A stretch of DNA of 64,000 bases from Candidatus Bathyarchaeia archaeon (GCA_038883775.1 JAVZLM010000004.1:113442-177441), one strand, 5' to 3'. Numbered from the stretch's first letter, positions 1 through 58,621 are shown. A program made the numbers and translations. Notes: generated from the letters alone by a model not told the origin.

Positions 1-264
1 TTTAGCGGCGGCGAAACCAGAATTGAGCTTTTAGAGCCTTTGGGTAGCGATAGCCCAGTTGCCAAGTTTCTTGATAGTCGAGGTGAAGGCATTCATCACA
101 TCGCTGTAAAAGTTGAGAATATTGAGGCTGTTTTGGATGATTTTAAGCGTAAAGGTGTGGTTTTAGTTGATGAGAAGCCAAGAATTGGAGCTGAAGGCGC
201 AAAAATTGCCTTTGTTCACCCGAAAAGCACAAAGGGAGTGCTTTTGGAGTTAATAATGAAGTAA
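1..264 (+). CDS. mce: methylmalonyl-CoA epimerase (VOC family), 5'-partial
   Basis: Frame is open from base 1 ([13 protein letters not shown]...). Contains GEGIHHIA and [14 protein letters not shown] motifs; lies next to mutase/carboxyltransferase genes. Confidence 0.9.
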
Positions 265-272
265 GTGATTGT

Positions 273-1391
273 TTGAATCAAACTAAAATTGCCCTTTCCA
301 TCCAATTCTTCCACTCCTTTGTCAGCGGCATTCTTGGAGTCGCCATACCCTTAATGATGAAAGAAAGGAATGTGGATGTTGTCGTTATAGGACTTATCTT
401 CGCGGCTATGCCCTTGATTATGCAGTTTGGGCGAATGTTTTTTGCAACACTTTCAGATTTTTTGGGCAGAAACCTCTTCTTTATTTCTAACGGGGTTTTA
501 GGCGTAATTTCAAGTCTAATCTACTATGTTGCGCGGACACCACTAGAATTCTTGTTCGGCAAACTAATGGAGGGAACCAAAGAGGGTTCAATTTGGGCTG
601 TGAACAGGGCTTTTCTTTTAGAGAGAGAAGGGGGTCACTGGAGAATTTTAGTTTACCTAAGAACGGTAGTTTATGTTGGCTTCGCCCTTGGAAGTCTGCT
701 TACTGGCTTTTTGGTTGCTTGGCTATTTTTTGATGGAACAATGTTGTTATGCGCTCTTCTTGGAGTTTTTGTATTCTCGTTGGCGCTGTTGCTGCCTAAA
801 GAAAGAAAAGAACAGTTTAGCATGGTGAAGGCTTTGCAGTTTCTAGATTTCAGAAAGAAAAAGAAAATTTTCAAAATCTTCCTCTTTCTGTTTTTTATAA
901 TAGGTCTTTCCTATGGGTTTCGAGGAAGCTTTGTCATACCACTTTTCTTGGACATGTATGGTTTCGACACCGAAATAATTGGACTAATTATAGGCTTACA
1001 GATCTTGTTTGCTGGCTTTTCTTCATACCTCTTTTCGAAAACCACTAAGTTAAGGCAGATGATTCTTCTACAAGGTATTCTCTTTTCCACAGTCTTCTTT
1101 TCGCTTGGCTTTTTAAGTTCTATAGTTGCCGGGGTTCTTTTGGTTGTTTATGGCTTTATTGAGGGAATGTCAGGCATCGGACAAGAGGGAATTTTGTCCA
1201 AAATCTGCGATAAAGAGTCTTATGGAACCGATATTGGCTTGCTAATGTTTGGGTTGCATGTTGGCGAAACCATGAGTTTGGCTTTATCAGGCTTTCTTAT
1301 TGAAAGATGGGGTTTCCTTGCTCCCTTCCTCTTGGCGGCTTCAACATACGCAATTTTCTACATACCCTCATACACTATTCTGAAAGAGTGA
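273..1391 (+). CDS. MFS transporter
   Basis: About 12 hydrophobic segments; LSDFLGR resembles MFS motif A. Confidence 0.8.
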   Translation: MNQTKIALSIQFFHSFVSGILGVAIPLMMKERNVDVVVIGLIFAAMPLIMQFGRMFFATLSDFLGRNLFFISNGVLGVISSLIYYVARTPLEFLFGKLMEGTKEGSIWAVNRAFLLEREGGHWRILVYLRTVVYVGFALGSLLTGFLVAWLFFDGTMLLCALLGVFVFSLALLLPKERKEQFSMVKALQFLDFRKKKKIFKIFLFLFFIIGLSYGFRGSFVIPLFLDMYGFDTEIIGLIIGLQILFAGFSSYLFSKTTKLRQMILLQGILFSTVFFSLGFLSSIVAGVLLVVYGFIEGMSGIGQEGILSKICDKESYGTDIGLLMFGLHVGETMSLALSGFLIERWGFLAPFLLAASTYAIFYIPSYTILKE

Positions 1392-1394
1392 ACA

Positions 1395-2186
1395 ATGTTG
1401 AAAATTGACAAAATTCAAGAAAAGCTTCAAACCAAAAAAATTGGTAAAAAAATACTATACTTGCACAAAACTGGCTCCACAAACGACATAGCCAAAAAAT
1501 TAGCTAATTATGGAGCCTATGAAGGAGCAATTGTTATAGCGGAAACCCAAACCGCCGGACGAGGAAGACTTGATAGAAAATGGTTTTCGCCAAAAGGCGG
1601 ACTATATTTTTCAATTATTCTAAAACCAAAAATAAAAGCAAAAGAATCCATTAAACTCGTGTTCTTGGCTGGTTTGGCTGTAGCAGAAGTTCTGCATGAA
1701 AAATATGGGTTGCATGTGGAAACTAAGTGGCCAAACGATGTTTTAGTGAGGGGACGTAAGATTTGCGGGATACTAAGTGAAATGAAGACAAGAGGCGAAA
1801 AGGTGGACTATGCAGTAATAGGCTTAGGTATAAATGCAAACGTTGATGTTAAAAAAGAGTTTCCGGAAGAGCTGAAAACTGTTGCAACATCCATTGAAAA
1901 TGAGTTAGGTAGAAAAGTTAAGCTGGAAGAACTGCTTAAAGTGTTGCTTGAGAAATTGGAAAATGTTTATGAACAGTTTACAAAGGAAGGATTCGCTCCA
2001 GTTTTGAGGAGATGGAAAGGATATGCGAGTTTTCTTGGCAAAAATGTGGAAGTCATAAATGATGTTGGAAAGATGTATGGTTTAGCCTTAGATGTTGACA
2101 ATGATGGAACATTGCTCGTTAGGCTTGAAGATGGAAGAGTAGAGCATGTGTTTGTTGGGGACGTTTCTCTGCAGATAAATAAATGA
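1395..2186 (+). CDS. birA: biotin--protein ligase (no N-terminal HTH)
   Basis: STND, QTAGRGRLDRKW, KWPND and KICGIL motifs. Confidence 0.95.
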   Translation: MLKIDKIQEKLQTKKIGKKILYLHKTGSTNDIAKKLANYGAYEGAIVIAETQTAGRGRLDRKWFSPKGGLYFSIILKPKIKAKESIKLVFLAGLAVAEVLHEKYGLHVETKWPNDVLVRGRKICGILSEMKTRGEKVDYAVIGLGINANVDVKKEFPEELKTVATSIENELGRKVKLEELLKVLLEKLENVYEQFTKEGFAPVLRRWKGYASFLGKNVEVINDVGKMYGLALDVDNDGTLLVRLEDGRVEHVFVGDVSLQINK

Positions 2187-2312
2187 ATCTTTCGTAACTT
2201 TCGTTTTCATGGATTTAAATCCTTAATTAAGCCAGAACCTAACCGTATCTTTAGCCTTTCCGTATATTCTAAATATTTGAGCTACATTACCTAAAAGCAA
2301 GAGGGATTTGAA

Positions 2313-3881
2313 ATGGCTTTGGCGAAAGAGCCTAGTGTTGAGGAAAAGATTAACCGTTTAAGGGAATTGAATGAGCAAGCTAAACTTGGCGGTGGACAAA
2401 AGCGCATTGAAGAGCAACATGCTAAAGGTAAGTTAACAGCCAGAGAACGTATTGAATTGTTGCTTGATCCTGGCAGTTTCAATGAGCTTGACCGTTTTGT
2501 GGTTCATCAATGCACAGAATTTGGCATGGCGGAACGCAAATATCTCGGCGACGGCGTTGTAACTGGCTACGGCACAATTGACGGCAGACTTGTCTACATT
2601 TTCAGTCAAGACTTCACTGTTTTTGGTGGTTCCTTGGGTGAAATGTTTGCAAAAAAAGTTTGTAAAATAATGGATTTAGCCATAAAAGCTGGAGCGCCAG
2701 TCATAGGCTTAAATGACAGCGGTGGTGCACGCATACAAGAGGGCGTGGCAAGCCTTGCTGGTTACGGAGATATTTTCTTCCGCAACGTCATAAGCTCAGG
2801 TGTAATTCCACAGATAAGCGCTATAATGGGTCCATGCGCTGGCGGAGCCGTCTATTCGCCCGCACTAACAGACTTCATAATTATGGTTGACAAGACAAGT
2901 CACATGTTTATCACTGGTCCAGATGTGGTTAAAGCTGCTTTGGGGCAGGAGGTTACGTTTGAAGAGTTGGGCGGCGCCATGGTGCATAGCACAACCAGCG
3001 GTGTAGCCCATTTTATAGCCCAAAGCGAAGAGCATTGTATGCAGATTATTAAGAAACTTTTGAGCTATTTGCCAAGCAATTATCTTGAAGACCCGCCAGC
3101 AGTAGAGCCCACAGATGACCCAGACCGTACCGATGAGGATTTGGCGAGAATTCTTCCAGATGACCCGGACAAGCCTTATGATGTTAAGGAGGTTATTACT
3201 CGTGTGGTTGATAATGGCGAATTCTTTGAGATTCAGCCCCTTTGGGCGCAGAACATTGTTATTGGTTTTGCAAGGTTGAATGGCAAAACAGTAGGCATAG
3301 TGGCTAACCAACCGTTGCATTATGCTGGAGCCCTAGACATAAACAGCAGCATGAAAGCGGGACGCTTCATACGCTTCTGCGACTGCTTCAACATCCCAAT
3401 AATAACATTCGTAGACGTGCCAGGATTCTTGCCAGGTCTTGAACAGGAACACGGCGGAATAATAAGGCATGGCTCAAAACTTTTATACGCTTATTGCGAA
3501 GCTACTGTGCCAAAAATCACCACTATACTGCGCAAAGCTTATGGTGGAGCATATGACGTTATGGGCTCCAAACATTCAGGGGCAGACATAAACTATGCTT
3601 GGCCAACAGCCGAAATAGCCGTTATGGGACCTCAAGGCGCCATAAACATAATTTTCCGAAAGGAAATAACTGAGGCTGAAAACCCAGAGCAAAAACGGAT
3701 GGAACTTGTAAGCGAATATCGCCAAAAATTTGCAAATCCATATGTGGCAGCCCAGAAGGGCTATATAGATGAGGTGATTGAACCAGCAGAAACAAGACCA
3801 AAACTCATCAGTGCATTAGAAAGCCTAATCATGAAAAGAGAGCCTAGACCATCCAGAAAACATGGAAATATACCATTATAG
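2313..3881 (+). CDS. acyl-CoA carboxyltransferase subunit (MmdA/PccB/transcarboxylase 12S family)
   Basis: [36 protein letters not shown] and C-terminal KHGNIPL. Confidence 0.95.
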
Positions 3882-3941
3882 ATTAATAGTAGCTCAGCCA
3901 TTCTTTCAAACTCTAAAAATACTAGAGGGGCTAGGCAATTT

Positions 3942-5483
3942 ATGGCTTCGAAACCAGTTAAAATCACCGACACCACATTTAGAGACGCTCATCAGTCGCT
4001 TATGGCTACAAGGATGCGCACTGATGCCATGCTTCCCATAGCTGAAAAAATTGACAAAGTTGGCTTTTTCTCTTTGGAAATGTGGGGAGGAGCCACATTC
4101 GACGTTTGCATACGCTATTTAGGCGAAGACCCGTGGGAAAGAATACGCCAACTAAAACGCCACATAAAAAGAACCCCGCTTCAAATGCTGTTGCGGGGAC
4201 AAAACATAGTTGGCTATCGCAATTATCCAGATGATGTTCTCATAAAATTTGTTGAGAAGGCGGCTGAAAATGGCATAGACATATTTCGAGTTTTTGACGC
4301 CTTAAACGACGTAAGAAACATGGAAGTGGCCATAAAAACCGTTAAAAAAATGGGCAAACACGCTCAAGGAACTATTTGCTACACTATAAGCCCAGTTCAC
4401 ACAATCCAATATTATGTTAAAGTTGCAAAAAAATTGACAGAACTCGATTGTGATTCTATATGCATAAAGGACATGGCTGGAATGCTTGCGCCTCAGCCAG
4501 CCTATGAGCTTATAACTGCCCTAAAAAAGGAGATAAGCCTACCCATACATTTGCACAGTCACAGCACAAGCGGCATGGTTATGATGACATACCTCCGAGC
4601 ATGCGAAGCTGGAGTAGACATAATAGACGCAGCCTTTTCACCTTTCGCATGGGGTACATCACAACCGCCAGTAGAATCCATCGTAGCTGCTTTAAAGGGA
4701 ACCCCGTACGACCCGGGACTTGACTTGGAATTTTTAAGCGAGATTGCAGATTACTTCCGAGAGTTACGAGAAAAATATTATGACCCTTTAAAGTTAATAG
4801 ATCAAAAAGCTGAACGGGTTGACACGTCCATCATTGTGCATCAGATTCCGGGCGGAATGTTCTCCAACCTTCTCGAACAATTAAGGGAACAAAAAGCGCT
4901 TGACAGGTTAAAGGAGGTTCTTGAAGAAGTTCCGAGGGTTAGAAAAGAGTTGGGTTATCCTCCTTTAGTAACGCCTACAAGTCAGCTTGTGGGTATACAA
5001 GCCGTTTTTAACGTTATTTCTGGTAAACGCTACAGCATAGTGCCAAAAGAGATAAAGGATTATGTGAAGGGCTTATATGGAAGACCGCCAGCCCCCATAG
5101 ACCCTAAAGTGAAAAAGAAGATAATAGGCGATGAAGAACCCATAACTTGTCGTCCAGCTGACCTTTTAGAAAGTGCCCTTGACAAAATTCCTGAAGAAGT
5201 AAAACCCTACATCGAAAGTGAAGAAGACAAGATAACTTATGCGCTTTTTCCCCAAGTAGCCCTAGAATTCTTTAAAAAGAGAAAAGCAAAAAAGGAAGAA
5301 GCCAAAGCTGAAATTCCAACAGAAAGAATCACAGAGCTGGAGGACGTTGCCGCAGTCTCTGTGGCTGTTGTTACCTACATTAAAAGTTTGGGAAAAGCCA
5401 AAGCATTAATACCCGTGCGACCAAAGGGAATAACATCTGCTTGGGTTTTAGCTGGACGAAAAAGCTTCGAACTTGGTGTTTAA
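3942..5483 (+). CDS. pyruvate/oxaloacetate carboxyltransferase (PycB/OadA/transcarboxylase 5S family), no biotinyl domain, epsilon/delta-like C-terminal tail
   Basis: RDAHQSL, WGGATFD, IKDMAG, HSH and LVTPTSQ; tail VAAVSVAV...SAWVLAGR. Confidence 0.92.
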   Translation: MASKPVKITDTTFRDAHQSLMATRMRTDAMLPIAEKIDKVGFFSLEMWGGATFDVCIRYLGEDPWERIRQLKRHIKRTPLQMLLRGQNIVGYRNYPDDVLIKFVEKAAENGIDIFRVFDALNDVRNMEVAIKTVKKMGKHAQGTICYTISPVHTIQYYVKVAKKLTELDCDSICIKDMAGMLAPQPAYELITALKKEISLPIHLHSHSTSGMVMMTYLRACEAGVDIIDAAFSPFAWGTSQPPVESIVAALKGTPYDPGLDLEFLSEIADYFRELREKYYDPLKLIDQKAERVDTSIIVHQIPGGMFSNLLEQLREQKALDRLKEVLEEVPRVRKELGYPPLVTPTSQLVGIQAVFNVISGKRYSIVPKEIKDYVKGLYGRPPAPIDPKVKKKIIGDEEPITCRPADLLESALDKIPEEVKPYIESEEDKITYALFPQVALEFFKKRKAKKEEAKAEIPTERITELEDVAAVSVAVVTYIKSLGKAKALIPVRPKGITSAWVLAGRKSFELGV

Positions 5484-5484
5484 A

Positions 5485-6039
5485 ATGCCAATTTACGAAG
5501 TCCTCATTGACGGCAAACCGAGAAAAATCGAGTTGACAAAGACTGGAGAGAACACTTTTTCAGTTATACTGGATGGAAAGCCTTTAAAGGTGGAGTTACC
5601 AGCTGAAAAGCTTACATTAGAAAAGGTTTTTTCAATAAAAATTGATGACAAAACATATCAAGTAAATTTGCCCGAACTAAAAAGGGAAGAGCCTTTTTCG
5701 GTCAAAGTTGAAGAGGCAGTTTTTAAGGCTGAAGTCAAAGCACCAACAAGAAAACCCATACCGACAACTTTTGAACCCACCACAGTAACGCCTACAATAA
5801 GACCGGTAGAAACAAAGCCAGCAGTGGAAGGAACTGTGACTGCGCCCATGACTGGAAAAATTCTTTCAATAAAAGTCAAGAAAGGCGAACAAGTGAAAGC
5901 CGGTCAGGTTCTCTGCATTCTTGAAGCAATGAAAATGGAAAACGAGATTGCAGCCCCAAAAAGCGGAACCATTCAAGAAATACTCGTTTCTGAGGGTTCT
6001 TCAGTCAACGAAGGAGAAGCCCTCTTCATTATCGTTTAG
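5485..6039 (+). CDS. biotin carboxyl carrier protein
   Basis: EAMKMEN biotinylation motif, APMTGKI and a Pro/Thr-rich linker; ATG at 5485. Confidence 0.95.
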
Positions 6040-7718
6040 AAAATGGAAGGTGGTTTATACTCGCCGAAAACTTCCCGCAGAGTGTCGCAAATTTCTCCTA
6101 TGGTTGCGTATTCTTTCACTGCTTGAATCATTAAGGGCATCAGATTCACATCTTCTTTCTCAGCAGCTAAGCGCAATTTATCCAAGGCTTCTTTAACTTT
6201 CGCCTGGTTTCTTTGCCGTTTTATTTGTTTTAAGCGTTCCACAAGCGTCTTTTCTATTTCTGGGTCTATCTGCAAAATTTTTATCGGCGTTTCCTCCTGC
6301 GTCACAAAATCGTTTACGCCAACAATTATGCGCTTCTTTGTTTCCACCTCTCTTTGGAAGCGATAAGCACTTTCCACGATTTCTCTTTGCATAAACCCTT
6401 TCTCGATGGCGGCAACAGCCCCTCCCATTTCATCAATTTTTTCAATGTATTTTGCCGCGCGTTCTTCTATCTCATTTGTCAAGTACTCCACATAATATGA
6501 GCCTGCAAGGGGGTCTATGGTTTCGGCTACTCCGCTTTCATAAGCTATTATCTGCTGGGTCCTAAGCGCAACCGTAACGGCTTGCTCGCTTGGCAAGGCA
6601 TAAGCTTCATCAAAAGAGTTTGTATGCAAAGACTGGGTTCCACCCAAAACTGCAGCCAAAGCTTGAATGGCAACTCTGATAATGTTATTGTAAGGTTGCT
6701 GCGCCGTTAAGGCAACACCAGAAGTTTGTGTGTGAAAACGCAACATCCAAGATGCAGGGTTTTTGGCTTTGAAATGTTCTCGCATTATTTTAGCCCACAG
6801 CCTTCTGGCAGCTCTAAATTTGGCTATTTCTTCGAAGAAGTTGTTGTGGGCTGCGAAAAAGAAGGATAATCTTCCCGCGAACCTATCCAAATCTAAGCCC
6901 TTTTCGATGGCTGCTTGCACATAGGCGATGGCGTTTGCCAATGTGAAGGCTACTTCTTGAACGGCTGTTGCTCCCGCCTCGCGGATGTGGTAACCGCTTA
7001 TGCTTATAGTATTCCATAGAGGCATGTGTTGAGAGCAATATTCGAATATGTCTGTGACTAAACGCATTGAGGGTTTAGGTGGAAAAATGTACATGCCCCT
7101 AGCTGCATACTCTTTCAAAATATCATTCTGCACTGTTCCCCCAAGCTGGGATGGTTCGGCGCCTTGTTTTTGTCCAACTGCTATGTACATGGCAAGCAAA
7201 ACGGTTGCTGGAGCATTAATGGTCATGGAAGTTGTAATTTCTTTTAAGGGAATTCCGTCGAAGACTATTTCCATATCCATTAAAGTGCTAACGCTTACGC
7301 CAGCCCTTCCAACTTCGCCTCGCGCCATGGGGTGGTCGCAGTCATAACCCACTTGTGTTGGAAAGTCAAAAGCCACGCTTAAGCCTCTTTGACCTTGTTG
7401 GAGCAAGTATTTGAAGCGCTGATTAGTTTGTTCAGCCGTTCCAAAACCAGCATACTGCCTCATAGTCCATAGTCTAGCCCTATACATGGTCGGATAAACG
7501 CCACGAGTAAAGGGATATTCTCCAGGAAAACCCAAATCTCCTAAATAGTCAAGTTTTTCAATGTCAACGGGCGTATAAACCCTACTTACTGGGATTTCTG
7601 AACTTGTTAAAAATTCGCCTTTTTCTGGAAGCCTTTCAAGACTTTTAGATACGGTTTCTTTCTCCCACTTTTCCCTACGTTGTTTAATTTCTTCCATCAT
7701 TTGCTTGTTAAACATCAT
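6036..7718 (-). CDS. mcmA: methylmalonyl-CoA mutase, large (substrate-binding) subunit
   Basis: [24 protein letters not shown] and SISGYH. Tyr (RQYAG) and Arg (YAARG) match the methylmalonyl-CoA specificity residues. No B12-binding domain (split mutase). Confidence 0.93.
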
Positions 7719-7855
7719 TGAAAACACCTAACGAGCCTGTTTAGGCATCTTCAATTGTTTCATATATTTAGACATTTTCTTAAGTGATGCGCTTATAAGA
7801 AGCTATTAGCGTCTAATAGTCTTCAACGTATTTTTCATCATAAATCCAATAGAAA

Positions 7856-9677: not shown

Positions 9678-9810
9678 TCATGCAAACTCCTTAATAGCGT
9701 GAAAATGTTAGCAGCACAACCCGATATTAATTTAGCGATTAAAATTGTGATAAATGATTATATTAATGAGTTTGAACCATGATATTATAGAAGCTTTCGA
9801 GGTTTCGCCA

Positions 9811-10101
9811 TTGAAGGTTAAAGTGGAATACTTCGGCCATGTAAGAAATATCATTAAAAGTGGTCGAGAAGAAGAGATTGAAATTCAGGATGACGCTTCC
9901 ATAGCAGACTTACTGCTTAAGCTTTCTGAAAAATACGGCGAACCCTTCCAAAAGGCTTTTTACGAACCAAAAGGCAAGGATGTAAAAACAAACTACATAA
10001 TCACAGTGAACGGCTACTTACTGAATCAGCTGGATGGCATAAAAACAAAACTTAAAAACGGAGACCATGTGGCGTTGCTTCCCATAGTCAGCGGCGGATA
10101 A
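9811..10101 (+). CDS. MoaD/ThiS/SAMP ubiquitin-like sulfur carrier
   Basis: C-terminal LLPIVSGG and beta-grasp pattern; probable TTG start at 9811. Confidence 0.9.
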   Translation: MKVKVEYFGHVRNIIKSGREEEIEIQDDASIADLLLKLSEKYGEPFQKAFYEPKGKDVKTNYIITVNGYLLNQLDGIKTKLKNGDHVALLPIVSGG

Positions 10102-16133: not shown

Positions 16134-17546
16134 TCACAAAATTCTCAACAATTTGCCTTCCTTGCTTCTTATTTCAACCATCAATCTCTCATTAGCGTTT
16201 CTTGTGGCACATTTTATGCAGGGGTCGTAAGCCCTTATCACCATCTCAATCCTATTCAAGAGACCAGGCTTAATTTCGCCTTTTTGAATGAACTCCATTG
16301 CCGCATCTTTCACATTAACGTTTATAGCCGCATTATTCACTTGAGTTGGTATTATCAACTTCATATTTTTTAGACGTCCATTTCTGGAAATTTCATACTC
16401 GTGGGCGAGGGTTCCCCTTGGAGCCTCAACAACTCCTATGGCTTTTCCGCCTTTAGGTTTAACTTTAACTCTAGTGTTTGTTCGTGTTATGGTTTCGTCT
16501 TCTAAAAGTTCTTTTACCTTTTCGCATGCATAAATTAGGTCTATAAGGCGGGCATAATCAAATAGGAGAGTGGCATGGGCTGGAGTTCCAAATTTTCTTT
16601 TAAACTCTTCCAGTTCTTTTTTGGCGATGTTTGTTGTGGTTTTTTTGTTTATGTTCATTCTGGCTGTTGGTCCAACTTGAACTATGCCTTCTGGCAAGCC
16701 TAAGGTTTTTAGGTAGGCAAATTTTGCATAGGTCCATTTGTAACGTTTTTCTTCTATGTGTTGCATGTAATCTTGCGCTGGAAATTTGTATAAGGTTTCG
16801 CCTTGAGGATTAATGATGCATATTTCGCCATCATAAAATTCTAAGGCGTCATCCTTCGTCAAAGCCATGTAATGGGTTTTATAGTCTCCGGCTTTTTTAA
16901 AATCTTGCCAGTTTTTGTAGAAAAGTTCCTTTCCAAGCTCGAAAGCTTCCTTGGTGATTTCACATGCATCTCGTGCCTTTTTTAGAAGTTCTTCTCTTTC
17001 TCTTTCCTTTAGCGGGTTGATTAAGCCTCCTGGTATGGTTGAGATTATGTGAACTTCCCGTTTTCCGACAACGTCTAATATTTGTGCTCCAAAGCTTCTA
17101 AGCATGATGGCTTTTTTTCCTATTTCTAGTTTTTCCCGCATTATTTGGAAAACATTCCTCTTTGAAGGATTTTCTTCTGGAGAAAACCAAAAGTCTGGGA
17201 GTGTTAGGAAAAAGAAAACTAAAGAGTGGTTGCTTATTATTTGTCCCATGAGTAGGAGTTCGCGAAGTTTTTTGGCTGTTTCCGTTATTTCTGTTCCATA
17301 AATATTCTCTATGGTTTTAACAGAGGCAATAATGTGGGCTGTAGAGCAGACTCCGCATATTCTAGAAATTATGAATGGTAGCCTTTCCGCTTCCATTCCC
17401 TTTACGAAGTAGTCGAAGCCTCTGATTTCTGTGGCGTAAAAGTATGCGTCTGAAACGTTGCCGAACTCGTCAAGGATTATTGTTACTTTTCCATGACCCT
17501 CAATTCTTGTTGTTGGTGAAATTGTTATTTCTTTATGGCTGCTCAA
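16134..17546 (-). CDS. [NiFe] hydrogenase large subunit, group 3-like (MvhA/HydA family)
   Basis: TRIEGHG, RICGVC, APRG and DPCIKC, plus a C-terminal extension. Confidence 0.92.
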   Translation of the reverse strand: MSSHKEITISPTTRIEGHGKVTIILDEFGNVSDAYFYATEIRGFDYFVKGMEAERLPFIISRICGVCSTAHIIASVKTIENIYGTEITETAKKLRELLLMGQIISNHSLVFFFLTLPDFWFSPEENPSKRNVFQIMREKLEIGKKAIMLRSFGAQILDVVGKREVHIISTIPGGLINPLKEREREELLKKARDACEITKEAFELGKELFYKNWQDFKKAGDYKTHYMALTKDDALEFYDGEICIINPQGETLYKFPAQDYMQHIEEKRYKWTYAKFAYLKTLGLPEGIVQVGPTARMNINKKTTTNIAKKELEEFKRKFGTPAHATLLFDYARLIDLIYACEKVKELLEDETITRTNTRVKVKPKGGKAIGVVEAPRGTLAHEYEISRNGRLKNMKLIIPTQVNNAAINVNVKDAAMEFIQKGEIKPGLLNRIEMVIRAYDPCIKCATRNANERLMVEIRSKEGKLLRIL

Positions 17547-18406
17547 ATGATCCTCTCCCTTGCTTTGGAACGTGCGAATTTTGAGAAAATGAATGTGTGG
17601 AAAATGAAGGGGTTGCGGTAAAGCTCCTCTTTCACCTTCTCTTCTGGAATACTGGTTCTTTTTGAAATTACTTTGACGAGAAAAGCGTACATATCCCTCG
17701 ACCTATATAATAAGGAATCAGCGGGACCCCTACATCCGAAACATGTAAAACAAGCCCTTGGACATGGTGCTCCGCATCCGTCCCTTGTAAGAGAACCAAG
17801 GCATATGAAGCCTTGGCTTACTAGGCATAATTCTGGATTTGCTTCTTTCTCGTATATCCCATAAAGGCGGTCAAGTTTTGCTGGAATGATTTTTCTGTGG
17901 CATTCTGTGCAGACAACGCTTTGATGTCGAAGGGGTGCTTTTCCGCTTACTATGCTTTTTAAACTGTGGACTATTAGGAATGGCATGGGTGGGCATCCTG
18001 GAATATAATAGTCGACATCGACGAAATTACATATGGGATACATTAAATCCTTTGGTTCTGGAAGTGTGCTTGAAAGTTGGATAGAATATTCCTTTTCTAA
18101 AAGCTTCTTAACGGATAACAAATTGCCAAGGCTTGTTATTCCGCCGTGGGTTGCGCATATTCCTAAAGCCACGAGAATTTTGGATTTAGCCCGCACCTCT
18201 CTAATCAATTTTTCGTCATCGGTTGTCCGAACTCCACCTTCAACGATGGCTAAGTCAACTTCTGAAATTTCCTTCAAATCCATAAAAGTTGGGGAATAAA
18301 CTATCTCGAAATCTCCTAAAAGAATTTCGTATAAGGCGTCACCAGCGTTTAAGAAAGATGATATGCATCCGGCGCAGCATGTCAAAGAAATTATGTTAAC
18401 TTTCAC
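17543..18406 (-). CDS. [NiFe] hydrogenase small subunit (MvhG/HydD family)
   Basis: CAGC, EGGV, GICATHGG, PGCPP and a distal Cys cluster (CTEC...CLG...GCGAPCP...CFGCRG). Confidence 0.92.
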   Translation of the reverse strand: MKVNIISLTCCAGCISSFLNAGDALYEILLGDFEIVYSPTFMDLKEISEVDLAIVEGGVRTTDDEKLIREVRAKSKILVALGICATHGGITSLGNLLSVKKLLEKEYSIQLSSTLPEPKDLMYPICNFVDVDYYIPGCPPMPFLIVHSLKSIVSGKAPLRHQSVVCTECHRKIIPAKLDRLYGIYEKEANPELCLVSQGFICLGSLTRDGCGAPCPRACFTCFGCRGPADSLLYRSRDMYAFLVKVISKRTSIPEEKVKEELYRNPFIFHTFIFSKFARSKARERII

Positions 18407-21737: not shown

Positions 21738-22271
21738 TTATCCGCTTAAAATTGTTGATATTTCTATGGGAGCAAACATTTCCCTCTTCGCCTTGCAGAT
21801 GGGACAAATGTAGGGTGGGTCTTCCCGAAAAACCACGTAACCGCACTGTTTGCAATACCAAAGTTTCAGCTTTATCTCAGAAGGCTTCTTAGCAACTACT
21901 GCAACAGCCTCAGAAGTTTCTTCGGCTTTTCCATAAGCCCTAGCTTGCTTTTCTAAAGGTCTACGTTCAGGAACAGGCATGAGTGGAGTTTTGCCTTCAT
22001 ACACATCTTTTCTAACATAAAGTGCGCAGTAGCAAGCCCCAAACTCTTCAACGTCTAAATCTCGATAATCGCATGGGCATATTATATCTCTATCCCACTC
22101 AAATTTTCCTGATGCTAATCTGCAAGGGCATGAGGGATACCCATAACGTTCCTCATTCCTTTTTAATCCTTCAAGTAAGTCTTTAAGGAAATCTGGGTTT
22201 GGGTTTAAATAGTAGCCGTGGGTTTTTGCGTCGCTTTCCACTCTTTGGCGAACTTTTTCAATTGTTATCAA
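21738..22271 (-). CDS. ferredoxin:thioredoxin (disulfide) reductase catalytic domain fused to a rubredoxin-like domain
   Basis: CPC, CPC and CYC motifs; C-terminal WYCKQCGY...CPIC. Confidence 0.92.
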   Translation of the reverse strand: MITIEKVRQRVESDAKTHGYYLNPNPDFLKDLLEGLKRNEERYGYPSCPCRLASGKFEWDRDIICPCDYRDLDVEEFGACYCALYVRKDVYEGKTPLMPVPERRPLEKQARAYGKAEETSEAVAVVAKKPSEIKLKLWYCKQCGYVVFREDPPYICPICKAKREMFAPIEISTILSG

Positions 22272-22552
22272 ATTTCTAAAATCTCCTTCAGTTTATCTTT
22301 GCGGAAACCATTAATCAGAATTTTATCGTCTATTATTATTGCTGGATAGCTAAGGCTTCCCTTCCTAGTCAAAATGTCTTTTCGAATTTTTTCTTTATCT
22401 TCATCACCGCTGAGGTCCACATCCACATACTCATATTCAATTTCGTTCTCTTTCAGAAACTGTTTTGTTAATTTGCACCATGCGCATGTGCTTAATGCAT
22501 AAACCAAAACCTTATGCTTTTTGTTTTTTCCTGGAACCTTAACGATGTTCAT
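22268..22552 (-). CDS. glutaredoxin/NrdH-like protein
   Basis: STCAWC, SYPAII and GF; overlaps the FTR start by 4 bp. Confidence 0.9.
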   Translation of the reverse strand: MNIVKVPGKNKKHKVLVYALSTCAWCKLTKQFLKENEIEYEYVDVDLSGDEDKEKIRKDILTRKGSLSYPAIIIDDKILINGFRKDKLKEILEI

Positions 22553-22667
22553 TTTCTCAGCTCACGCATTTCCTTTAGGTTTAGCGCATAATATAACTAT
22601 TTGCCGTGTGAGAGGCTTAAAAATTAGAAAAGCTAATATTTTTACGCTTTAACCTATGATTAGGTGA

Positions 22668-22988
<321 letters not shown>

Positions 22989-23073
22989 AGGCGAATCATT
23001 AACTTACTCTTCTTTTTCACACTTGATGTTACAGACTATTTGATGTCATTGTTTCGCTTAGGTTTACACATGC

Positions 23074-23688
23074 TTATTTTAGCGTTTCTTCTAAACGTTT
23101 GTTTACTTCTTCCCAGTTAACAATGTTCCAGAAGGCTTCAACAAATTTGGCTCTATCATTTTTATAATCTATGTAGTAGGCATGCTCGAAAACGTCCAAA
23201 ACCATGAGGATTCTAAACATTGGATAAACGTTTGCGTTGTGCTTTTCTATTTGCATTATTATTGGTCTGTTAGTTTGTTTGCAGAAGGTTAATGCTGCCC
23301 ATCCAGAACCTTCCACGCTAACAGCGGCTTGTGAAAATTCTTTCTTGAACCTTTCAAAACTTCCAAATTCTTCATTTAAGGCTTCCCCTAAAACTTCGCT
23401 GGGTTTTCCACCGCCCTTGCTTGGAGGCGCCAAGTTTCCCCAGAAAAGCGAATGAAGCAGATGTCCGCCTATGTTAAATGAAAGTTCTTTTAGGGTTGAT
23501 TTGATGTCTATTTCCGCATTTTCCTTTCTTGTCTTATCAAGCCTTTGAAGAATTGTGTTGGCGCCGTTAACGTAGGCTTGATGATGTTTACTATGGTGTA
23601 TTCTTAACTGTTCCTCAGACATGTAAGGCGCTAAATCCTTATAATCATAGGGCAATGGTGGTAAAACGTAAAATTTTGTTTTCTCCAA
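23074..23688 (-). CDS. sod: Fe/Mn superoxide dismutase
   Basis: [22 protein letters not shown] and DVFEHAYY. Confidence 0.96.
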
Positions 23689-23776
23689 CTTTCACACCTT
23701 TAGCTTTCTATATAGGCTTATGGAAGCTTTATATTTTGTCCTTGCACTTCATATTAGAAAATAAGCGGTGGATAAA

Positions 23777-23938
23777 TTGGATAAGTGGGAATGCACGGTT
23801 TGCGGTTACATTTACGATCCAGAAGTTGGAGACCCAGAACATAACATAAAGCCTGGAACCCCCTTTGAGGATTTACCAGAAGATTGGATTTGTCCAGTTT
23901 GTAATGCGCCTAAAAGCCAATTTGTTAAAAAGGAATAG
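23777..23938 (+). CDS. rubredoxin (53 aa)
   Basis: Not in the ORF track. [19 protein letters not shown]...[17 protein letters not shown]. Confidence 0.95.
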
Positions 23939-24000
23939 AAGACATTAATTTTCAAACTTTTTATATTATGATTTTGTTATTTTTGAAATGGTTACCTCTT

Positions 24001-26094
24001 ATGTCTATTGCGAAAATAAGGAAGAGAGACGGAAGAATTGTTGATTTCGATTCTTCAAAAATAAAAGATGCAATACATAGAGCGTTTATTGCTGTGGAGC
24101 TTGAGAATGGTGAAAGAGCGGAAAGTCTTACAAAGGATGTTGTTAGGCTTCTTGAAGAAAGATTTAAGGAAAAAATTCCGTCGGTTGAAGATGCCCAAGA
24201 CATTGTTATTGAAGTTTTGAAGAAAGGTGGTTATGGAAAAGTTGCAGAGGAATATGCGAGCTATAGGAAAAGGAAGGAGGAGATAAGAGAGCTAAAAGAG
24301 AAGTTGGGAATTGTAGAACCAAAATTAACTGTTAACGCTCTTGAAGTTTTGAATAGGCGATACCTCTTAAAAGATGAAACGGAAAGGATTATAGAAACTC
24401 CAGCGCAAATGTTTGAACGAATAGCCAAAGCCATAGCAAGTGTTGACAAATTATACGGCGAAGACCCACGTGAAAGCGCAAAAATTTTTTATAATATGAT
24501 GACACGGCTTGAGTTTATTCCAAACTCCCCAACCCTTTTCAATGCTGGAACAGAGCTTGGCCAGTTATCTGCATGTTTTGTTTTGCCAGTGGAAGATTCT
24601 TTAGAAAGCATCTTCTCAGCCGTCAAAAACATGGCTTTAATAGAAAAAAGCGGGGGAGGCGTAGGCTTCGACTTTTCAAAATTAAGACCAAACGGGGACA
24701 TTGTAAGATCAACGAAAGGCGTAGCCTCTGGTCCTGTAAGTTTCATGCGTGTTTTTGATACGGCTACTGAAGTGATAAAGGCTGGTGGGAAAAGGAGAGG
24801 CGCTATGATGGGAATTTTAAGAGTTGACCATCCCGACATTCTTGAATTCATAACCTCAAAGCAAAAGCCAGGTTTTCTTTCAAACTTTAACATTTCCGTC
24901 GCTGTGACAGATGATTTTATGAATACCTTGGAAGAAGACGGCGAGTATTGGCTAATAAATCCGAGAAATAAGGAAAGGGTGAGAAAGCTTAAAGCCCAAA
25001 ATGTTTGGAATATGATGATACAATCCGCTTGGATGAGTGGAGACCCTGGCGTTATCTTCATAGATGAGATTAATAGGCATAATCCGACGCCAGCGGTTGG
25101 AAGGATAGAGGCGACCAACCCTTGCGGTGAGCAGCCGCTTTTGCCTTATGAGTCTTGTAATTTGGGTTCAATAAATCTTTCAAGAATGGTTGAGGATGGA
25201 AAAATAGATTGGGAAAAATTGAGGGGAACGGTGAGGAATGCTGTTCACTTTCTTGACAACGTTATTGATGCTAACAAGTATCCCCTAAAAGAAATAGAAG
25301 TCATAACCAGAGCGAATAGGAAGATAGGCTTGGGGGTTATGGGTTTTGCTGACATGCTCATAAAACTTGGGATTCGCTACGACTCTGAAGAGGCTTTGGC
25401 TCTTGCTGAAAAACTTATGAAATTCATTGATGAAGAAGCACACAAGAAATCTATGGAAATAGGTGAAGAAAGGGGTTCATTTCCAAACTTTGAAAATAGC
25501 ATTTGGAAAGATAAATACAGGGCTATGCGAAACGCCACCGTAACGACTATAGCGCCGACTGGAAGCATAAGCATAATAGCCGGCTGCTCTTCAGGAATCG
25601 AACCCATATTCGCCATTTCCTTCATAAGAAATGTTTTAGGCGGAACAAGACTTTTCGAAACCAATCCATTGTTTGAGATGACAGCAAAGGAAAGGGGATT
25701 TTACAGCGCCAAACTTTTGGAGGAAATTGCCAAAACGGGTTCTGTTCAAAAAATCGATGAAGTGCCAGAAGACGTTAAGAAAGTTTTCGTCACAGCCTTG
25801 GACATAAAACCTGAATGGCATGTGCGGATGCAAGCTGCATTCCAAAAGTACACGGATAACGCGGTTTCAAAAACCGTTAATATGCCAACAGAAGCCACAG
25901 TAGACGATGTGAAAATGGTTTACGAGCTTGCTTGGAAACTAAAATGTAAGGGCGTAACCGTTTTCAGATATGGAAGCAAACCAGAACAAGTGCTATACAT
26001 AGGAGAGATAAAAACTAGGGAAAAACAGTTTGTTACGGCTGAATCTGAATATGCTGGTGGGTGTCCAACAAAAACATGCCCCTTCCCAGGCTAA
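24001..26094 (+). CDS. nrdJ: adenosylcobalamin-dependent (class II) ribonucleotide reductase with ATP cone
   Basis: KRDG ATP cone, [28 protein letters not shown] and a C-terminal Cys pair. No intein apparent. Confidence 0.93.
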
Positions 26095-26111
26095 AACACG
26101 TGAAATGGCGT

Positions 26112-26429
26112 TTACATTTCTTTTTGGATGATGATTTCTCTGCCTTCGAAAATGGCTCTTATGAGTTTTTCTCTTGCATTTTCAACCAATCGCCAAACAG
26201 TATTCCTTGAAACCATCATTCTTTCGCCAGCTTCTTCAAAAGACAATTTTTCCAAATCTATTAGCCTCAATGCTTCTATTTCGGCTTGTTCCAAGTAAAT
26301 GGGTTCTAAACTTTTTTTGGGTGTGGGTTCAAGTTTTTCTGTGGTTGGGTTTGTGGTTACTGCTATGGGTTTTGGTGGTCTTCCAACTCTGCCGTGTCTT
26401 CGTCTTTTGCGCCATTGCCATCCTGACAT
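26112..26429 (-). CDS. DUF134-family HTH protein
   Basis: GRPPK...EIEALRLIDLE..SFEEAGERMMVSRNTVWR...AR.KL. Confidence 0.88.
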   Translation of the reverse strand: MSGWQWRKRRRHGRVGRPPKPIAVTTNPTTEKLEPTPKKSLEPIYLEQAEIEALRLIDLEKLSFEEAGERMMVSRNTVWRLVENAREKLIRAIFEGREIIIQKEM

Positions 26430-26432
26430 GGT

Positions 26433-26496
26433 TTATGGGATATATCACAAAACTTAAATAGTTTATGCTCCAACTATTATGTGACATATCACAAAA
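26433..26496. promoter_or_regulatory. two 20-bp palindromic operator-like repeats flanking a TATA box
   Basis: TTATGGGATATATCACAAAA (26433-26452) and TTATGTGACATATCACAAAA (26477-26496), 18/20 identical; CTTAAATA lies between them. Confidence 0.65.
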
Positions 26497-26512
26497 TAGA
26501 GGCGAAACCAAA

Positions 26513-26725
26513 ATGAGAGGATGGCGCTACAGACCAAGAGGATGGTGGTGTCCAAGACATCCGTGGCCTCCACCTTGGGCTCAAAGTCAGTATTATCCTT
26601 ATCCAGCTGACCCAAACGAAGAACTGAAAGCCTTAGAGGATTTAAGAAAGAGCATAGAATTGGAACTTGCAGACTTAAATAAACGCATAGAAGAGCTTAG
26701 GACGCTGATTCAAGAGAAAAAGTGA
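26513..26725 (+). CDS. DUF5320-like small protein (Arg/Trp/Pro-rich N-terminus plus coiled coil)
   Basis: MRGWRYRPRGWW...EELKALE...LNKRIEEL; usual neighbour of DUF134/NifX genes. Confidence 0.65.
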   Translation: MRGWRYRPRGWWCPRHPWPPPWAQSQYYPYPADPNEELKALEDLRKSIELELADLNKRIEELRTLIQEKK

Positions 26726-26731
26726 AGCTTA

Positions 26732-27085
26732 ATGGCAGTACAGCCTAAGAGTTTAAAAGTTGCCATTGCAACGACAAGCGAAAAGGGACTTGAAGATACG
26801 GTTTCGCATGAATTTGGCCACGCAAAAACCTTCACAATTATAGACATAAAAGATAATAGCGTAAAAAATGTGGAGGTAATAGAGAATCCAGCTGCGTCGC
26901 TTAGTCATGGCAAAGGACCAGTCGTGGCAAAATATTTGGCAGACATGAAGGTGAACGTGGTCATTTCAGGGGAAGTTGGACCTGGTGCCACAACCATGCT
27001 TAACGAACTTAAAATAAAAATTTTAGCTGCCAAGTCTGGTGAGCAAGTGATAAACGTTTTAAGAAGTAATTCTCTGATTAAGTGA
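26732..27085 (+). CDS. NifB/NifX-family protein
   Basis: KVAIAT, VSHEFGHA, IENP, GKG and GEVGPGA. Confidence 0.88.
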   Translation: MAVQPKSLKVAIATTSEKGLEDTVSHEFGHAKTFTIIDIKDNSVKNVEVIENPAASLSHGKGPVVAKYLADMKVNVVISGEVGPGATTMLNELKIKILAAKSGEQVINVLRSNSLIK

Positions 27086-27110
27086 TGCGCATCTAAAACA
27101 AGAGTTGGTT

Positions 27111-27527
27111 TTAAGTCGTGGTTTTCATTTTGTAGCTTGTTTTGACTCCTGCTTTTTCGAAAAGTTTTCCAACTGGACAGTTTTCTAATGTTAGTTTGAA
27201 GATTCTTTGAATTCTATCTTCTGGAGCGTCAGCTTTGACTTGAATGTCAAAGTTAGCTTCTGTTATCGTGCCTTCTTCTTCTGATTTTACTGCTTCCAAT
27301 TTAACGTCTAAATCCTTCAGTGGAACACGCATTTTCTTGGCTGTCAAAGCGAAAATGGTTGCAAAGCATCCAGCATAACCCATCACAGCGCATTCCAAAG
27401 CCGTTGGTCCCATGTCTGAGCCGAGTTCTGGTGGAAGGTCAAGGCATATGCTGTGCGCCCTGCCATTGTCAACGGCTATCCTTAAATCCTTAACCAACTT
27501 TGCGTTTGCGTAAAGTTTTTGTGCCAA
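27111..27527 (-). CDS. OsmC-family protein
   Basis: GSDMGPTALE, AGC and NCPV; TTG start after a GGAGGTGA SD. Confidence 0.88.
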   Translation of the reverse strand: MAQKLYANAKLVKDLRIAVDNGRAHSICLDLPPELGSDMGPTALECAVMGYAGCFATIFALTAKKMRVPLKDLDVKLEAVKSEEEGTITEANFDIQVKADAPEDRIQRIFKLTLENCPVGKLFEKAGVKTSYKMKTTT

Positions 27528-27561
27528 ATTTTCACCTCCCTTTGAATTAAAAAAGAAGGGT

Positions 27562-28203: not shown

Positions 28204-28266
28204 TTTATCAACCTCCATTCGTTTTTAGGAACAAAAAACTTTTATCTCAGACTGTTTTATATATTT

Positions 28267-30224: not shown

Positions 30225-30249
30225 ATTAGGGACTTGAGAAGGCTTGTTT

Positions 30250-58597: not shown

Positions 58598-58621
58598 ACA
58601 TTATAAATGAGAGGAAGGCAA

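Follow-up and report, generated by a model that had tools for sequence, protein, structure and literature searches.

The window, a stretch of 64,000 nucleotides (GCA_038883775.1 JAVZLM010000004.1:113442-177441), begins with a gene cluster encoding two carboxyltransferases and one biotin carrier, and the question raised by this locus is which reaction these proteins would carry out together. The host is a hot-spring Bathyarchaeia archaeon, a class assignment taken from the names of near-identical proteins and loci. The first-pass annotation had proposed a transcarboxylase built from the three-subunit set of Propionibacterium, which would link methylmalonyl-CoA with pyruvate independently of ATP and Na+. 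Transcarboxylase is the classic ATP-free coupling of C3 carboxylation to C4 decarboxylation; to our knowledge, work on it has been confined almost entirely to Propionibacterium and some syntrophic bacteria.

Gene content and family assignments

ORF calling, Pfam and NCBIfam recovered, within positions 1-7727, all of the genes that had been named for this cluster: the carboxyltransferase (CT), the stand-alone 5S-like protein, the carrier, birA, the epimerase and the Tyr/Arg mutase. The features are as follows.

1..264, + strand: methylmalonyl-CoA epimerase, C-terminal 87 aa (TIGR03081, 119 bits, cut-off 115)
273..1391, + strand: MFS transporter (PF07690, 91 bits)
1395..2186, + strand: BirA, biotin-protein ligase without repressor domain (TIGR00121, 236 bits, cut-off 83)
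2313..3881, + strand: acyl-CoA carboxyltransferase (CT; 12S / PccB / MmdA type), 522 aa (PF01039, 699.5 bits)
3942..5483, + strand: keto-acid (pyruvate/oxaloacetate) carboxyltransferase, 5S / PycB / OadA type, 513 aa (PF00682 and PF02436)
5337..5480, + strand: 5S C-terminal tail, aa 466-513, putative docking tail (alignment, hhalign)
5473..6039, + strand: ORF of the biotin carrier, 184 aa from the likely start at 5485 (PF00364; AMKM motif)
5485..5742, + strand: predicted N-terminal eight-stranded barrel of the biotin carrier, BT-like (AF2 model, Foldseek, VIA-align)
5824..6039, + strand: biotinyl domain of the biotin carrier (PF00364, 84 bits)
6036..7727, - strand: methylmalonyl-CoA mutase large subunit, predicted Tyr/Arg type, 563 aa (TIGR00641, 841 bits)

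The epimerase gene is split by the window edge; the complete 133-aa gene (C4:113304-113705) starts 138 nt before the window. The likely start codon of the carrier is the ATG at 5485, a single base past the 5S stop codon. The MFS transporter, which the first-pass annotation did not list, is an optional cluster member: among the fetched loci it was found in G004, G010, G023, L063 and L064, whereas G002 had only a 71-aa remnant of it and G001 and others lacked it.

The CT is the sole CT gene in the genome (a single PF01039 match). It scored 877 bits against TIGR01117, short of the NCBIfam cut-off of 999, and the best CT model was mmdA. Upon comparison with solved chains, PccB (1vrg, 762 bits) ranked above the 12S subunit (1on3, 624 bits, matching residues 8-521). 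The 5S-like protein contains HMGL-like and PYC_OADA domains, is encoded by the only PYC_OADA gene in the genome, and carries no biotinyl domain (no PF00364 match in Pfam). Its score against the OadA model NF008985 was 744 bits (cut-off 718), whereas it failed the NCBIfam 5S equivalog NF008984 (575 bits versus a cut-off of 827), with the OadA and PycB models scoring higher. The motifs DTTFRDAHQS, IKDMAG and HLHSHS were aligned with those of solved PycB (5ks8), OadA (2nx9) and 5S (1rqb); they correspond to D-x-x-x-R-D-x-x-Q, KDMAG and H-x-H, which we take to be the metal-site motifs of 5S.

The comparison with the transcarboxylase of Propionibacterium freudenreichii subsp. shermanii (EC 2.1.3.1) therefore has two sides. 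The same three parts are encoded by separate genes without biotin carboxylase (BC) or pump, and the 12S (1on3), 5S (1rqb, 479 bits) and 1.3S (1dcz, 57.5 bits) chains all matched window proteins. In this respect the proposed Propionibacterium-type set stood. Its members, however, are no close orthologues of the Propionibacterium subunits: the CT was nearer to PccB, the 5S-like protein was nearer to PycB (5ks8, 567 bits), its best solved match, and the 5S equivalog cut-off was missed.

The mutase large subunit carries TMRQYAGF and AARGMYI (RQY and ARG), and a paralogue on contig C3 has RMF and AQK, corresponding to Phe/Gln. Tyr and Arg presumably occupy the two substrate-carboxylate positions that differ between methylmalonyl-CoA mutase and isobutyryl-CoA mutase, and with these assumed roles the window mutase is predicted to be of the methylmalonyl-CoA type. 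The B12 small subunit was located elsewhere (C3:121821-122207, with a partial copy at C27:3-221). Directly upstream of the cluster we found a TfrAB-like fumarate reductase and an AMP-forming acyl-CoA synthetase, and the remainder of the genome contained succinyl-CoA synthetase, class I fumarase, an MDH/LDH-family gene and MeaB in addition to the small subunit. These predicted surroundings fit the methylmalonyl-CoA pathway. A malic enzyme gene was also present; it offers an alternative C3-C4 link and counts against the transcarboxylase reading.

The biotin carrier and the 5S tail

No biotinyl domain other than that of the carrier was found in the genome, as the second PF00364 match is a lipoyl E2. 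The biotin site of the carrier is the Lys of the AMKM motif (residue 150), and a disordered, Pro/Thr-rich linker (aa 87-113) precedes the biotinyl domain, the predicted model of which showed a pLDDT of >90 and matched 2d5d_A with a Z-score of 15.2. The AF2 model of the N-domain (pLDDT 84.7) revealed a barrel of approximately 86 aa without a central helix in its own chain. The top Foldseek match of this barrel was human propionyl-CoA carboxylase (PCC) alpha (7ybu_A; TMq 0.78, rmsd 1.9 Å over 83 columns), and the top VIA-align match was the BT domain of yeast ACC (5csa_B; rmsd 2.9 Å over 81 aa), the sole chain with a Z-score of at least 5 among 48,161 chains; the Pfam PCC_BT model matched with an E-value of 0.005. 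On these matches, which are modest (E 1e-3 in Foldseek, Z 6.8 in VIA-align), the modelled N-domain is assigned the BT (BC-CT interaction) fold, as in PCC alpha. Because the genome encodes one CT, one PYC_OADA protein and one biotinyl protein, the carrier has only CT and 5S to serve, and it may serve both.

The 5S tail consists of an acidic run, an Ala/Val-rich stretch, 'ALIPxR' and then 'SxWVLAGR'. It was retained in all 18 of the 5S proteins examined from clusters of this order and in G144, and its Trp501 was invariant in 30 of 30 sequences. It was absent from the three OadB-linked 5S proteins examined, all of which end in a different motif. Comparison with the C-terminal tail of the BC of related genomes by hhalign gave 97.5% and an E-value of 7e-12, and by this alignment the two tails are judged homologous.

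For a BT-like domain formed in trans there is a precedent in the two-subunit pyruvate carboxylase of Methylobacillus flagellatus (5ks8; PMC5059739), where an Ala-rich C-terminal helix lies inside an eight-stranded barrel; BC contributes this helix, and the CT is fused to the barrel and BCCP. In contrast, the tail in the window is on the CT-type 5S protein, a free carrier provides the barrel, and no BC was found. Similar correspondences were present with the alpha6beta6 PCC (7ybu, 3n6r, 6ybp): the window CT was most like PccB, the carrier corresponds to the BT and BCCP part of the alpha subunit, and BC, a second carrier and CT of related genomes would together equal a split PCC. The window genome differs from PCC in having no detected BC domain, and we propose that the tailed 5S-type transferase takes the BC position.

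The Propionibacterium 1.3S subunit has a short N-terminal peptide instead of a barrel, and the textbook enzyme is a 1.3S-peptide assembly. The window carrier, in contrast, is 184 aa long and includes the BT-like barrel, and the window 5S has a BC-type tail, whereas the Propionibacterium 5S ends differently in the alignment. The carrier and the 5S tail thus point to a PCC-like assembly and not to a 1.3S-peptide assembly.

Biotin carboxylase and OadB in the genome and its relatives

The assembly is a MAG of 1.69 Mb in 28 contigs, with 91.4% completeness and 5.1% contamination. The first-pass annotation had noted neither BC nor OadB in the window, and none was found there. The same held for the whole 91.4% complete assembly, including the region just upstream of base 1, which gave no PF02785 (BC) or PF03977 (OadB) match and no BC in tblastn with BC proteins of three relatives. 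Three ATP-grasp genes (on C25, C6 and C8) were generic, reaching 41-45 bits on BC models with cut-offs of about 600-770. Given the completeness and contamination of the MAG, these absences are to be read as 'not found' and not as proof.

Within the genus, none of the 5 genomes yielded BC or OadB; of 41 relatives, 11 had BC and 1 had OadB, so neither partner consistently co-occurs with the cluster; such co-occurrence had been named as evidence that would speak against a transcarboxylase. We collected 37 distinct 5S-positive Bathyarchaeia genomes (from 23 of the 41 relatives and 19 of a class sample of 201): 14 had neither BC nor OadB, 12 had an intact BC, one had a frameshifted BC and 10 had OadB. 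Eight of the 14 genomes without both partners were at least 93% complete, including two scored at 100% and two at 97-98%. In five BC-bearing relatives (G012, G023, G030, L063, L064), BC and a second carrier adjoin the same cluster. In the genus, this pair is missing between the conserved flanks TfrA and epimerase, and the slot contained no BC in G000, G001, G002 and G004; in G048, BC and its carrier were both frameshifted.

In the 5S tree, BC-less genomes were nested at no fewer than four places among BC-bearing ones, which suggests that BC disappeared on four or more occasions while CT, 5S and the carrier were kept. The cluster ORFs were intact in all genus members examined, and at a dS of about 0.4-0.7 the dN/dS values in the BC-less genus were about 0.03 (CT), 0.06-0.07 (5S) and 0.10-0.16 (carrier). 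These ratios indicate strong purifying selection on the three genes.

A candidate transcarboxylase and its alternatives

CT, 5S and the carrier probably form a transcarboxylase that is built like PCC, with 5S replacing BC. As no BC and no sodium pump were found, CO2 is most likely passed directly between methylmalonyl-CoA and pyruvate; the carboxyl transfer proposed by the first-pass annotation, independent of ATP and Na+, is thus supported at the level of gene content. We infer the following for catalysis, complex architecture and direction. The swinging biotin of the carrier would take CO2 from (S)-methylmalonyl-CoA on CT to pyruvate on 5S, or the reverse, without ATP and without an ion pump. 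CT would form the core of a PCC-like complex on which the carrier docks via its BT-like barrel; 5S would fill the BC position, held by its BC-homologous C-terminal tail, which probably provides the hydrophobic helix lacking in the carrier barrel. The enzyme would join the epimerase, mutase, fumarate reductase, succinyl-CoA synthetase, fumarase and MDH/LDH-family gene into a succinate-propionate route. We lean slightly towards reductive propionate formation as its direction, and assimilation or oxidation of propionyl-CoA or propionate is a serious possibility.

Several alternatives were weighed against this transcarboxylase. The cluster may be a decarboxylase acting on methylmalonyl-CoA and/or oxaloacetate; it would then either depend on a membrane partner that escaped recognition or be soluble and conserve no energy. 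The OadA call for the 5S-like protein (744 versus 718) and the mmdA call for CT favour this reading, as do other Bathyarchaeia families (f17, f31, f35), in which 9 of the 14 genomes that were searched have CT and 5S next to OadB in one cluster; both transferase families are likewise common to the Na+-translocating MmdABCD and OadABG enzymes. However, no beta subunit was found in the window genome, OadB was nearly absent from the relatives, and the OadB-linked 5S proteins, which are 54-57% identical to the window 5S, lack the tail and end in another motif. In Na+-pump decarboxylases, carboxybiotin decarboxylation is performed by the beta subunit, so the only outlet for a beta-less enzyme would be the second transferase, and we regard the decarboxylase as unlikely. 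An ordinary ATP-dependent propionyl-CoA and/or pyruvate carboxylase, the BC of which was missed in incomplete assemblies, is quite unlikely. The 91% completeness of the assembly and the BC and second carrier that adjoin the cluster in five relatives favour it; moreover, CT and 5S share 83-93% identity across BC-bearing and BC-less genomes, with 93% for CT and 85% for 5S between BC-bearing G012 and the window, so that both would suit a BC-dependent carboxylase as well. Against it stand the lack of BC in all five genus members, the negative tblastn with lineage-specific BC proteins, the BC-free slot in four genomes, the 14 5S-positive genomes without BC, two of them scored 100% complete, and the frameshifts in G048.

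Another enzyme, such as an unrelated ATP-grasp protein, might carboxylate the carrier and thereby form a non-canonical carboxylase, and three ATP-grasp genes are indeed present; however, these match RimK/MptN/CPS-like models, score far below the BC cut-offs, and lie away from the cluster, and none has Biotin_carb_C, making this very improbable. That the cluster is a decaying remnant is barely credible: several lineages have evidently lost the BC module, but all genus members examined have intact ORFs, dN/dS stays at 0.03-0.16 with a dS of about 0.5, and the tail and biotin motif are conserved.

A proposed transcarboxylase has a precedent in archaea. In 2020, Imachi et al. already inferred transcarboxylase and propionate fermentation for Asgard archaea from SdhA, a transcarboxylase-associated biotin ligase and BCCP, likewise reasoning from gene content, in a different archaeal class; the passages of that paper that were consulted do not describe a tail, a BT-like carrier or BC-bearing sister clusters (PMC7015854). 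The Thor- and Hermod-type loci L043 and L046 contained the tailed 5S together with CT and a carrier; in L047, L049 and L050, 5S and carrier alone were found. Tentatively, Bathyarchaeia and some Asgard and bacterial lineages may possess a modular chassis, in which a PccB-type CT core takes swappable 'alpha' modules, each a catalytic subunit bearing the shared tail with its own BT-barrel carrier: BC and carrier 2 would give a carboxylase, and 5S and carrier 1 a transcarboxylase, the latter having evolved from a PCC-like enzyme by exchange of BC for a keto-acid transferase. If so, the BC-bearing relatives would have machines with both activities, carboxylase and transcarboxylase, and mere loss of the BC module would repeatedly turn these into a pure transcarboxylase.

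In combination with the BT-barrel carrier, the putative docking tail that BC and 5S have in common offers a concrete hypothesis for the exchange of catalytic modules among biotin enzymes. If the transcarboxylase reading is true, abundant sediment and hot-spring archaea would run a succinate-propionate route via transcarboxylase, and the modelling of their fermentation balance and CO2 handling would change, because the names now assigned automatically ('oxaloacetate decarboxylase alpha' and 'methylmalonyl-CoA decarboxylase alpha') imply a sodium pump, and none was found.

Gene content of the cluster and its closest known enzymes

Analysis of open reading frames with Pfam and NCBIfam bore out the gene list of the first-pass annotation, from which a single gene (MFS transporter, 273-1391) had been omitted. 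The cluster comprises the following genes:

1-264, + strand: 3' part of the methylmalonyl-CoA epimerase gene (ORF and Pfam/NCBIfam)
273-1391, + strand: MFS transporter (ORF and Pfam/NCBIfam)
1395-2186, + strand: BirA (ORF and Pfam/NCBIfam)
2313-3881, + strand: acyl-CoA carboxyltransferase (CT), 522 aa (ORF and Pfam/NCBIfam)
3942-5483, + strand: 5S-like keto-acid carboxyltransferase (5S), 513 aa, with HMGL-like and PYC_OADA domains and without a biotinyl domain
5485-6039, + strand: biotin carrier (ORF and Pfam/NCBIfam)
6036-7727, - strand: methylmalonyl-CoA mutase large subunit, 563 aa (ORF and Pfam/NCBIfam)

The carrier most likely starts at the ATG at 5485, 1 base past the 5S stop codon; the carriers of relatives open with the same 'MPxYE'. 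As evident from NG86 comparisons of this genome with three congeners (dS ~0.4-0.9), dN/dS was 0.03 for CT, 0.06-0.07 for 5S, 0.10-0.16 for the carrier and 0.05 for the mutase. In the mutase, the RQY motif provides a Tyr and AARGMYI an Arg, and a paralogue on contig C3 that is 68% identical contains Phe and Gln at those two positions, which we take to be markers of mutase type (Phe/Gln being isobutyryl-CoA-mutase-like). The window mutase has no adjoining small subunit. The paralogue lies in a second acyl-CoA mutase operon (C3:120843-123918; L029:3843-6918), in which the Phe/Gln large subunit is accompanied by the B12 small subunit and MeaB and adjoined by a methionine-gamma-lyase-like gene; a partial second B12 small-subunit gene was present at the edge of contig C27.

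Upon comparison with known enzymes, CT scored 762 bits against PccB (1vrg) and 624 bits against the Propionibacterium 12S subunit (1on3), while the 5S-like protein scored 567 bits against PycB (5ks8), 531 bits against OadA (2nx9) and 479 bits against Propionibacterium 5S (1rqb). In sequence, PccB and PycB/OadA were thus the nearer relatives of the subunits and the Propionibacterium enzyme the more distant one, and the 5S-like protein fell below the cut-off of the NCBI 5S equivalog model. The window set probably works like a transcarboxylase, yet by sequence it is not an orthologue set of the textbook enzyme. The enzyme class is known and has already been inferred in other archaea; passages in Imachi et al. 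(2020; PMC7015854) describe an inferred propionate fermentation in Asgard archaea. Within the literature covered, including passages of PMC13248872, PMC8164749 and PMC7565565, we found nothing that ties Bathyarchaeia to this enzyme.

Biotin carboxylase and OadB in Bathyarchaeia

Proteins and loci nearly identical to those of this genome bear Bathyarchaeia names, and the top match is labelled 'Bathycorpusculaceae'. A profile search of the assembly (1.69 Mb, 28 contigs, 91.4% complete, 5.1% contamination) with Biotin_carb_C, which was positive in 13 of 14 reference genomes used as a control, revealed no match in this genome. OAD_beta likewise gave no match, and no match was obtained by tblastn with biotin carboxylase (BC) proteins from three relatives. 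Three weak ATP-grasp matches were rejected as BC candidates, as they were RimK/MptN/CPS-like and scored 41-45 bits on BC models with cut-offs of ~600-770. The genome contained one CT, one PYC_OADA gene and one biotinyl protein; the other Biotin_lipoyl match was a lipoyl-bearing dihydrolipoamide acyltransferase (E2) gene (C4:17945-19033; L028:1446-2534), although the archaeon seems anaerobic in other respects. The cluster was present in all five genomes of the genus, and neither BC nor the membrane decarboxylase subunit OadB was found in any of the five. The searches proposed in the first-pass annotation thus found neither partner in this 91.4%-complete genome, and this pattern supports its interpretation of ATP- and Na+-independent carboxyl transfer.

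Among 41 related genomes, this one counted in, the 5S gene was found in 23 and BC in 11, all of them 5S-positive, while OadB was found only in G005, beside a second, divergent 5S copy. An even sample of 201 genomes of the class contained 19 with 5S, 14 of which were new with respect to the relatives' set. These 14 included one with an intact BC, one with a frameshift-broken BC (G048) and nine with OadB, all nine from families f17, f31 and f35. Across the 37 5S-positive genomes, BC was intact in 12 and broken in one, OadB was present in 10, and neither was found in 14, whose completeness ranged from 64% to 100% (at least 93% in eight).

The gene order shows where the BC module lies in relatives. 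In five relatives' loci or genomes (G012, G023, G030, L063 and L064), BC and a second carrier of ~180 aa, which has the same domain plan as the window carrier and 31-34% identity to it, directly adjoin epimerase-(MFS)-BirA-CT-5S-carrier-mutase. The genus retains the same flanks (TfrB, TfrA) without the BC pair: the epimerase directly follows TfrA in G001, an acyl-CoA synthetase lies between them in the genome studied here, and a 634-aa ORF lies between them in G004. In G048 (L033, C4; 10640-12538), frameshifts were found in BC and in the adjoining second carrier, while the neighboring CT, 5S and first carrier were intact; either the BC module is decaying in this genome or the assembly is in error. 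A FastTree phylogeny of the 5S core, with the C-terminal tail excluded (102 sequences), placed the sequences of the order in one clade of 22 with support of 1.0. The basal branches of this clade were BC-bearing genomes, BC-less genomes were nested at no fewer than four places, and G048 was sister to a BC-bearing genome. Because the tree follows a single gene, the number of BC losses is an estimate.

In other families, the CT and 5S proteins encoded in OadB-linked clusters were just 54-60% identical to those of the window. In L034 (G045:C1), L039 (G090:C1) and L035/L036 (G144), CT and 5S lie together with two short carriers and a membrane subunit of OadB type, and G144 and G194 each carried a tail-bearing CT-5S-carrier cluster plus a separate BirA-CT-OadB-carrier cluster. 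Genes inserted in the relatives' clusters were miscellaneous (among them a NAT-family acetyltransferase, sensor kinase, AlkZ-like protein, MFS transporter and CysRS) and were rejected as parts of the system. An Antibiotic_NAT-family acetyltransferase gene was located between CT and 5S in G004 (L018:6509-7336) and G010 (L022:7033-7854), and a 273-aa ORF occupied the same gap in L064 (7119-7940); the window has no such insert.

Predicted carrier fold and the C-terminal tail of 5S

The carrier model revealed an eight-stranded all-beta N-terminal domain (aa 3-85), which a disordered Pro/Thr linker joins to a biotinyl domain; predicted alone, the N-terminal domain had a pLDDT of 84.7. The best Foldseek matches of this domain were the BT domains, which mediate BC-CT interaction, of the alpha chains of propionyl-CoA carboxylase (PCC), glycolyl-CoA carboxylase, ACC and MCC, with 7ybu_A as the top match (TMq 0.78, rmsd 1.9 Å, 83 columns, E 1e-3). 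VIA-align, which is independent of Foldseek, gave the yeast ACC BT domain as the top match (Z 6.8, rmsd 2.9 Å, 81 aa), the sole match with Z ≥ 5 among 48,161 chains. Pfam PCC_BT matched the carrier weakly (E 0.005), over model positions 34-115 of 126, the barrel part alone. [quoted passage not shown]

The C-terminus of 5S is ELEDVAAVSVAVVTYIKSLGKAKALIPVRPKGITSAWVLAGRKSFELGV. This tail pattern was found in 18 of 18 5S proteins examined from the order's clusters, BC-bearing and BC-less, and in G144; 116 of 120 near homologues had it as well, its Trp501 was invariant in 30 of 30 sequences, and it was absent from all three OadB-linked 5S proteins examined. The BC proteins of relatives end in a tail of the same kind, and the profiles of the 5S and BC tails aligned with an hhalign probability of 97.5% (E 7e-12, 49 columns, 31% identity). 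Searches with the tail itself revealed no Pfam match, chance-level rows alone in a PDB sequence search, and one near-identical protein in a word-based homology search.

Beyond the class, we scanned species genomes using a tail-bearing homologue of 61% identity as query and scored the tail by a motif test. The tail was found in 10 of 80 loci (four Thorarchaeota, one 'Hermod' archaeon, one Chloroflexia and four Bathyarchaeia), with OadB nearby in none of the 10 and BC nearby in three; L045 and L048 contained degenerate versions. The 'Hermod' locus had the order mutase-epimerase-BirA-CT-5S-carrier-mutase-B12 subunit-MeaB. All 5S forms with a C-terminally fused BCCP motif lacked the tail, and most lay beside BC or OadB. 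Neither the collected proteins nor six long forms of 5S included a natural fusion of tail, barrel and BCCP in one chain. The tree did not resolve the tail-bearing 5S proteins as a single group: they fell into two clades, with support of 1.0 and of 0.79, and support at the deep nodes was weak (0.63-0.78).

Proposed assembly and metabolic context

Choi et al. (2016; PMC5059739) showed that in two-subunit pyruvate carboxylase a BT-like domain is assembled in trans: a hydrophobic, Ala-rich C-terminal helix of BC lies within an eight-stranded barrel contributed by its partner subunit, and deletion of the helix abolished the holoenzyme. By analogy, 5S and its carrier would be the structural counterpart of BC and the second carrier, that is, of a split PCC alpha chain in which 5S replaces BC. 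This 5S-carrier unit would be mounted on a PccB-like CT core, which would place one swinging biotin between two transferase sites. We consider it probable that CT, 5S and the carrier transfer carboxyl groups independently of ATP and Na+.

The direction of the pathway was weighed from the surrounding genes. Upstream on C4 we found an aldehyde:ferredoxin oxidoreductase, a TfrB-like gene (2Fe-2S, 4Fe-4S and two CCG domains) with a TfrA-like fumarate reductase gene, and, a few kb from the TfrAB-like genes, an HdrA/MvhD/HdrBC-like set with a [NiFe] hydrogenase (C4:94001-101378; L026:502-7879; 1022-aa HdrA-like protein, MvhD, HdrC/B-like proteins, small and large hydrogenase subunits). This proximity is suggestive of thiol/fumarate electron flow driven by H2 in an organism that is not a methanogen. 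Elsewhere in the genome were succinyl-CoA synthetase, class I fumarase, MDH/LDH-family genes, several ADP-forming acyl-CoA synthetases and malic enzyme, which was present in four of the five genomes of the genus. As other C3-C4 enzymes, archaeal PEPC, PEPCK-GTP and PEPCK-ATP were searched for and not found, and bacterial PEPC was found in none of the five genomes. Propionate formation, to which we give slightly better than an even chance, is favored by the ADP-forming synthetases and by the location of a thiol-type (Tfr-like) fumarate reductase near Hdr/Mvh-like genes. Use of propionate, or of propionyl-CoA derived from amino acids, is favored by the methionine-gamma-lyase-like gene that adjoins the second mutase and by the AMP-forming acyl-CoA synthetase immediately 5' of the epimerase, and has a little less than an even chance. 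This synthetase passed the AcsA model (786 versus a cut-off of 725) and scored 583 on the PrpE model, below the cut-off of 827.

Several other features of the window were recorded. The large and small subunits of a second [NiFe] hydrogenase are encoded at 16134-18406 (- strand), and 30244-31376 contains HypA and a maturation gene of ParA/NUBPL type. The region 21738-28218 encodes oxidative-stress proteins (Fe/Mn superoxide dismutase, peroxiredoxin, an OsmC-like protein and a ferredoxin:thioredoxin-reductase-like/rubredoxin fusion) as well as a class II-like ribonucleotide reductase, in a genome that is otherwise anaerobe-like. A SAMP-like small modifier protein of MoaD/ThiS type is encoded at 9754-10101, and a ThiF/E1-like gene lies far from it, at 58607-59656. 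Sequencing runs containing the stretch are labelled hot-spring metagenomes, and no RNA run was listed as containing it; four hot-spring runs have contigs over it, and the two of these that bear a metatranscriptomic label carry the mark 'probably DNA'.

The proposed PCC-like build and a tail common to BC and 5S, together with the occurrence in a single class of three module states (BC present, OadB present, neither present), provide a testable view of the assembly and evolution of such enzymes.
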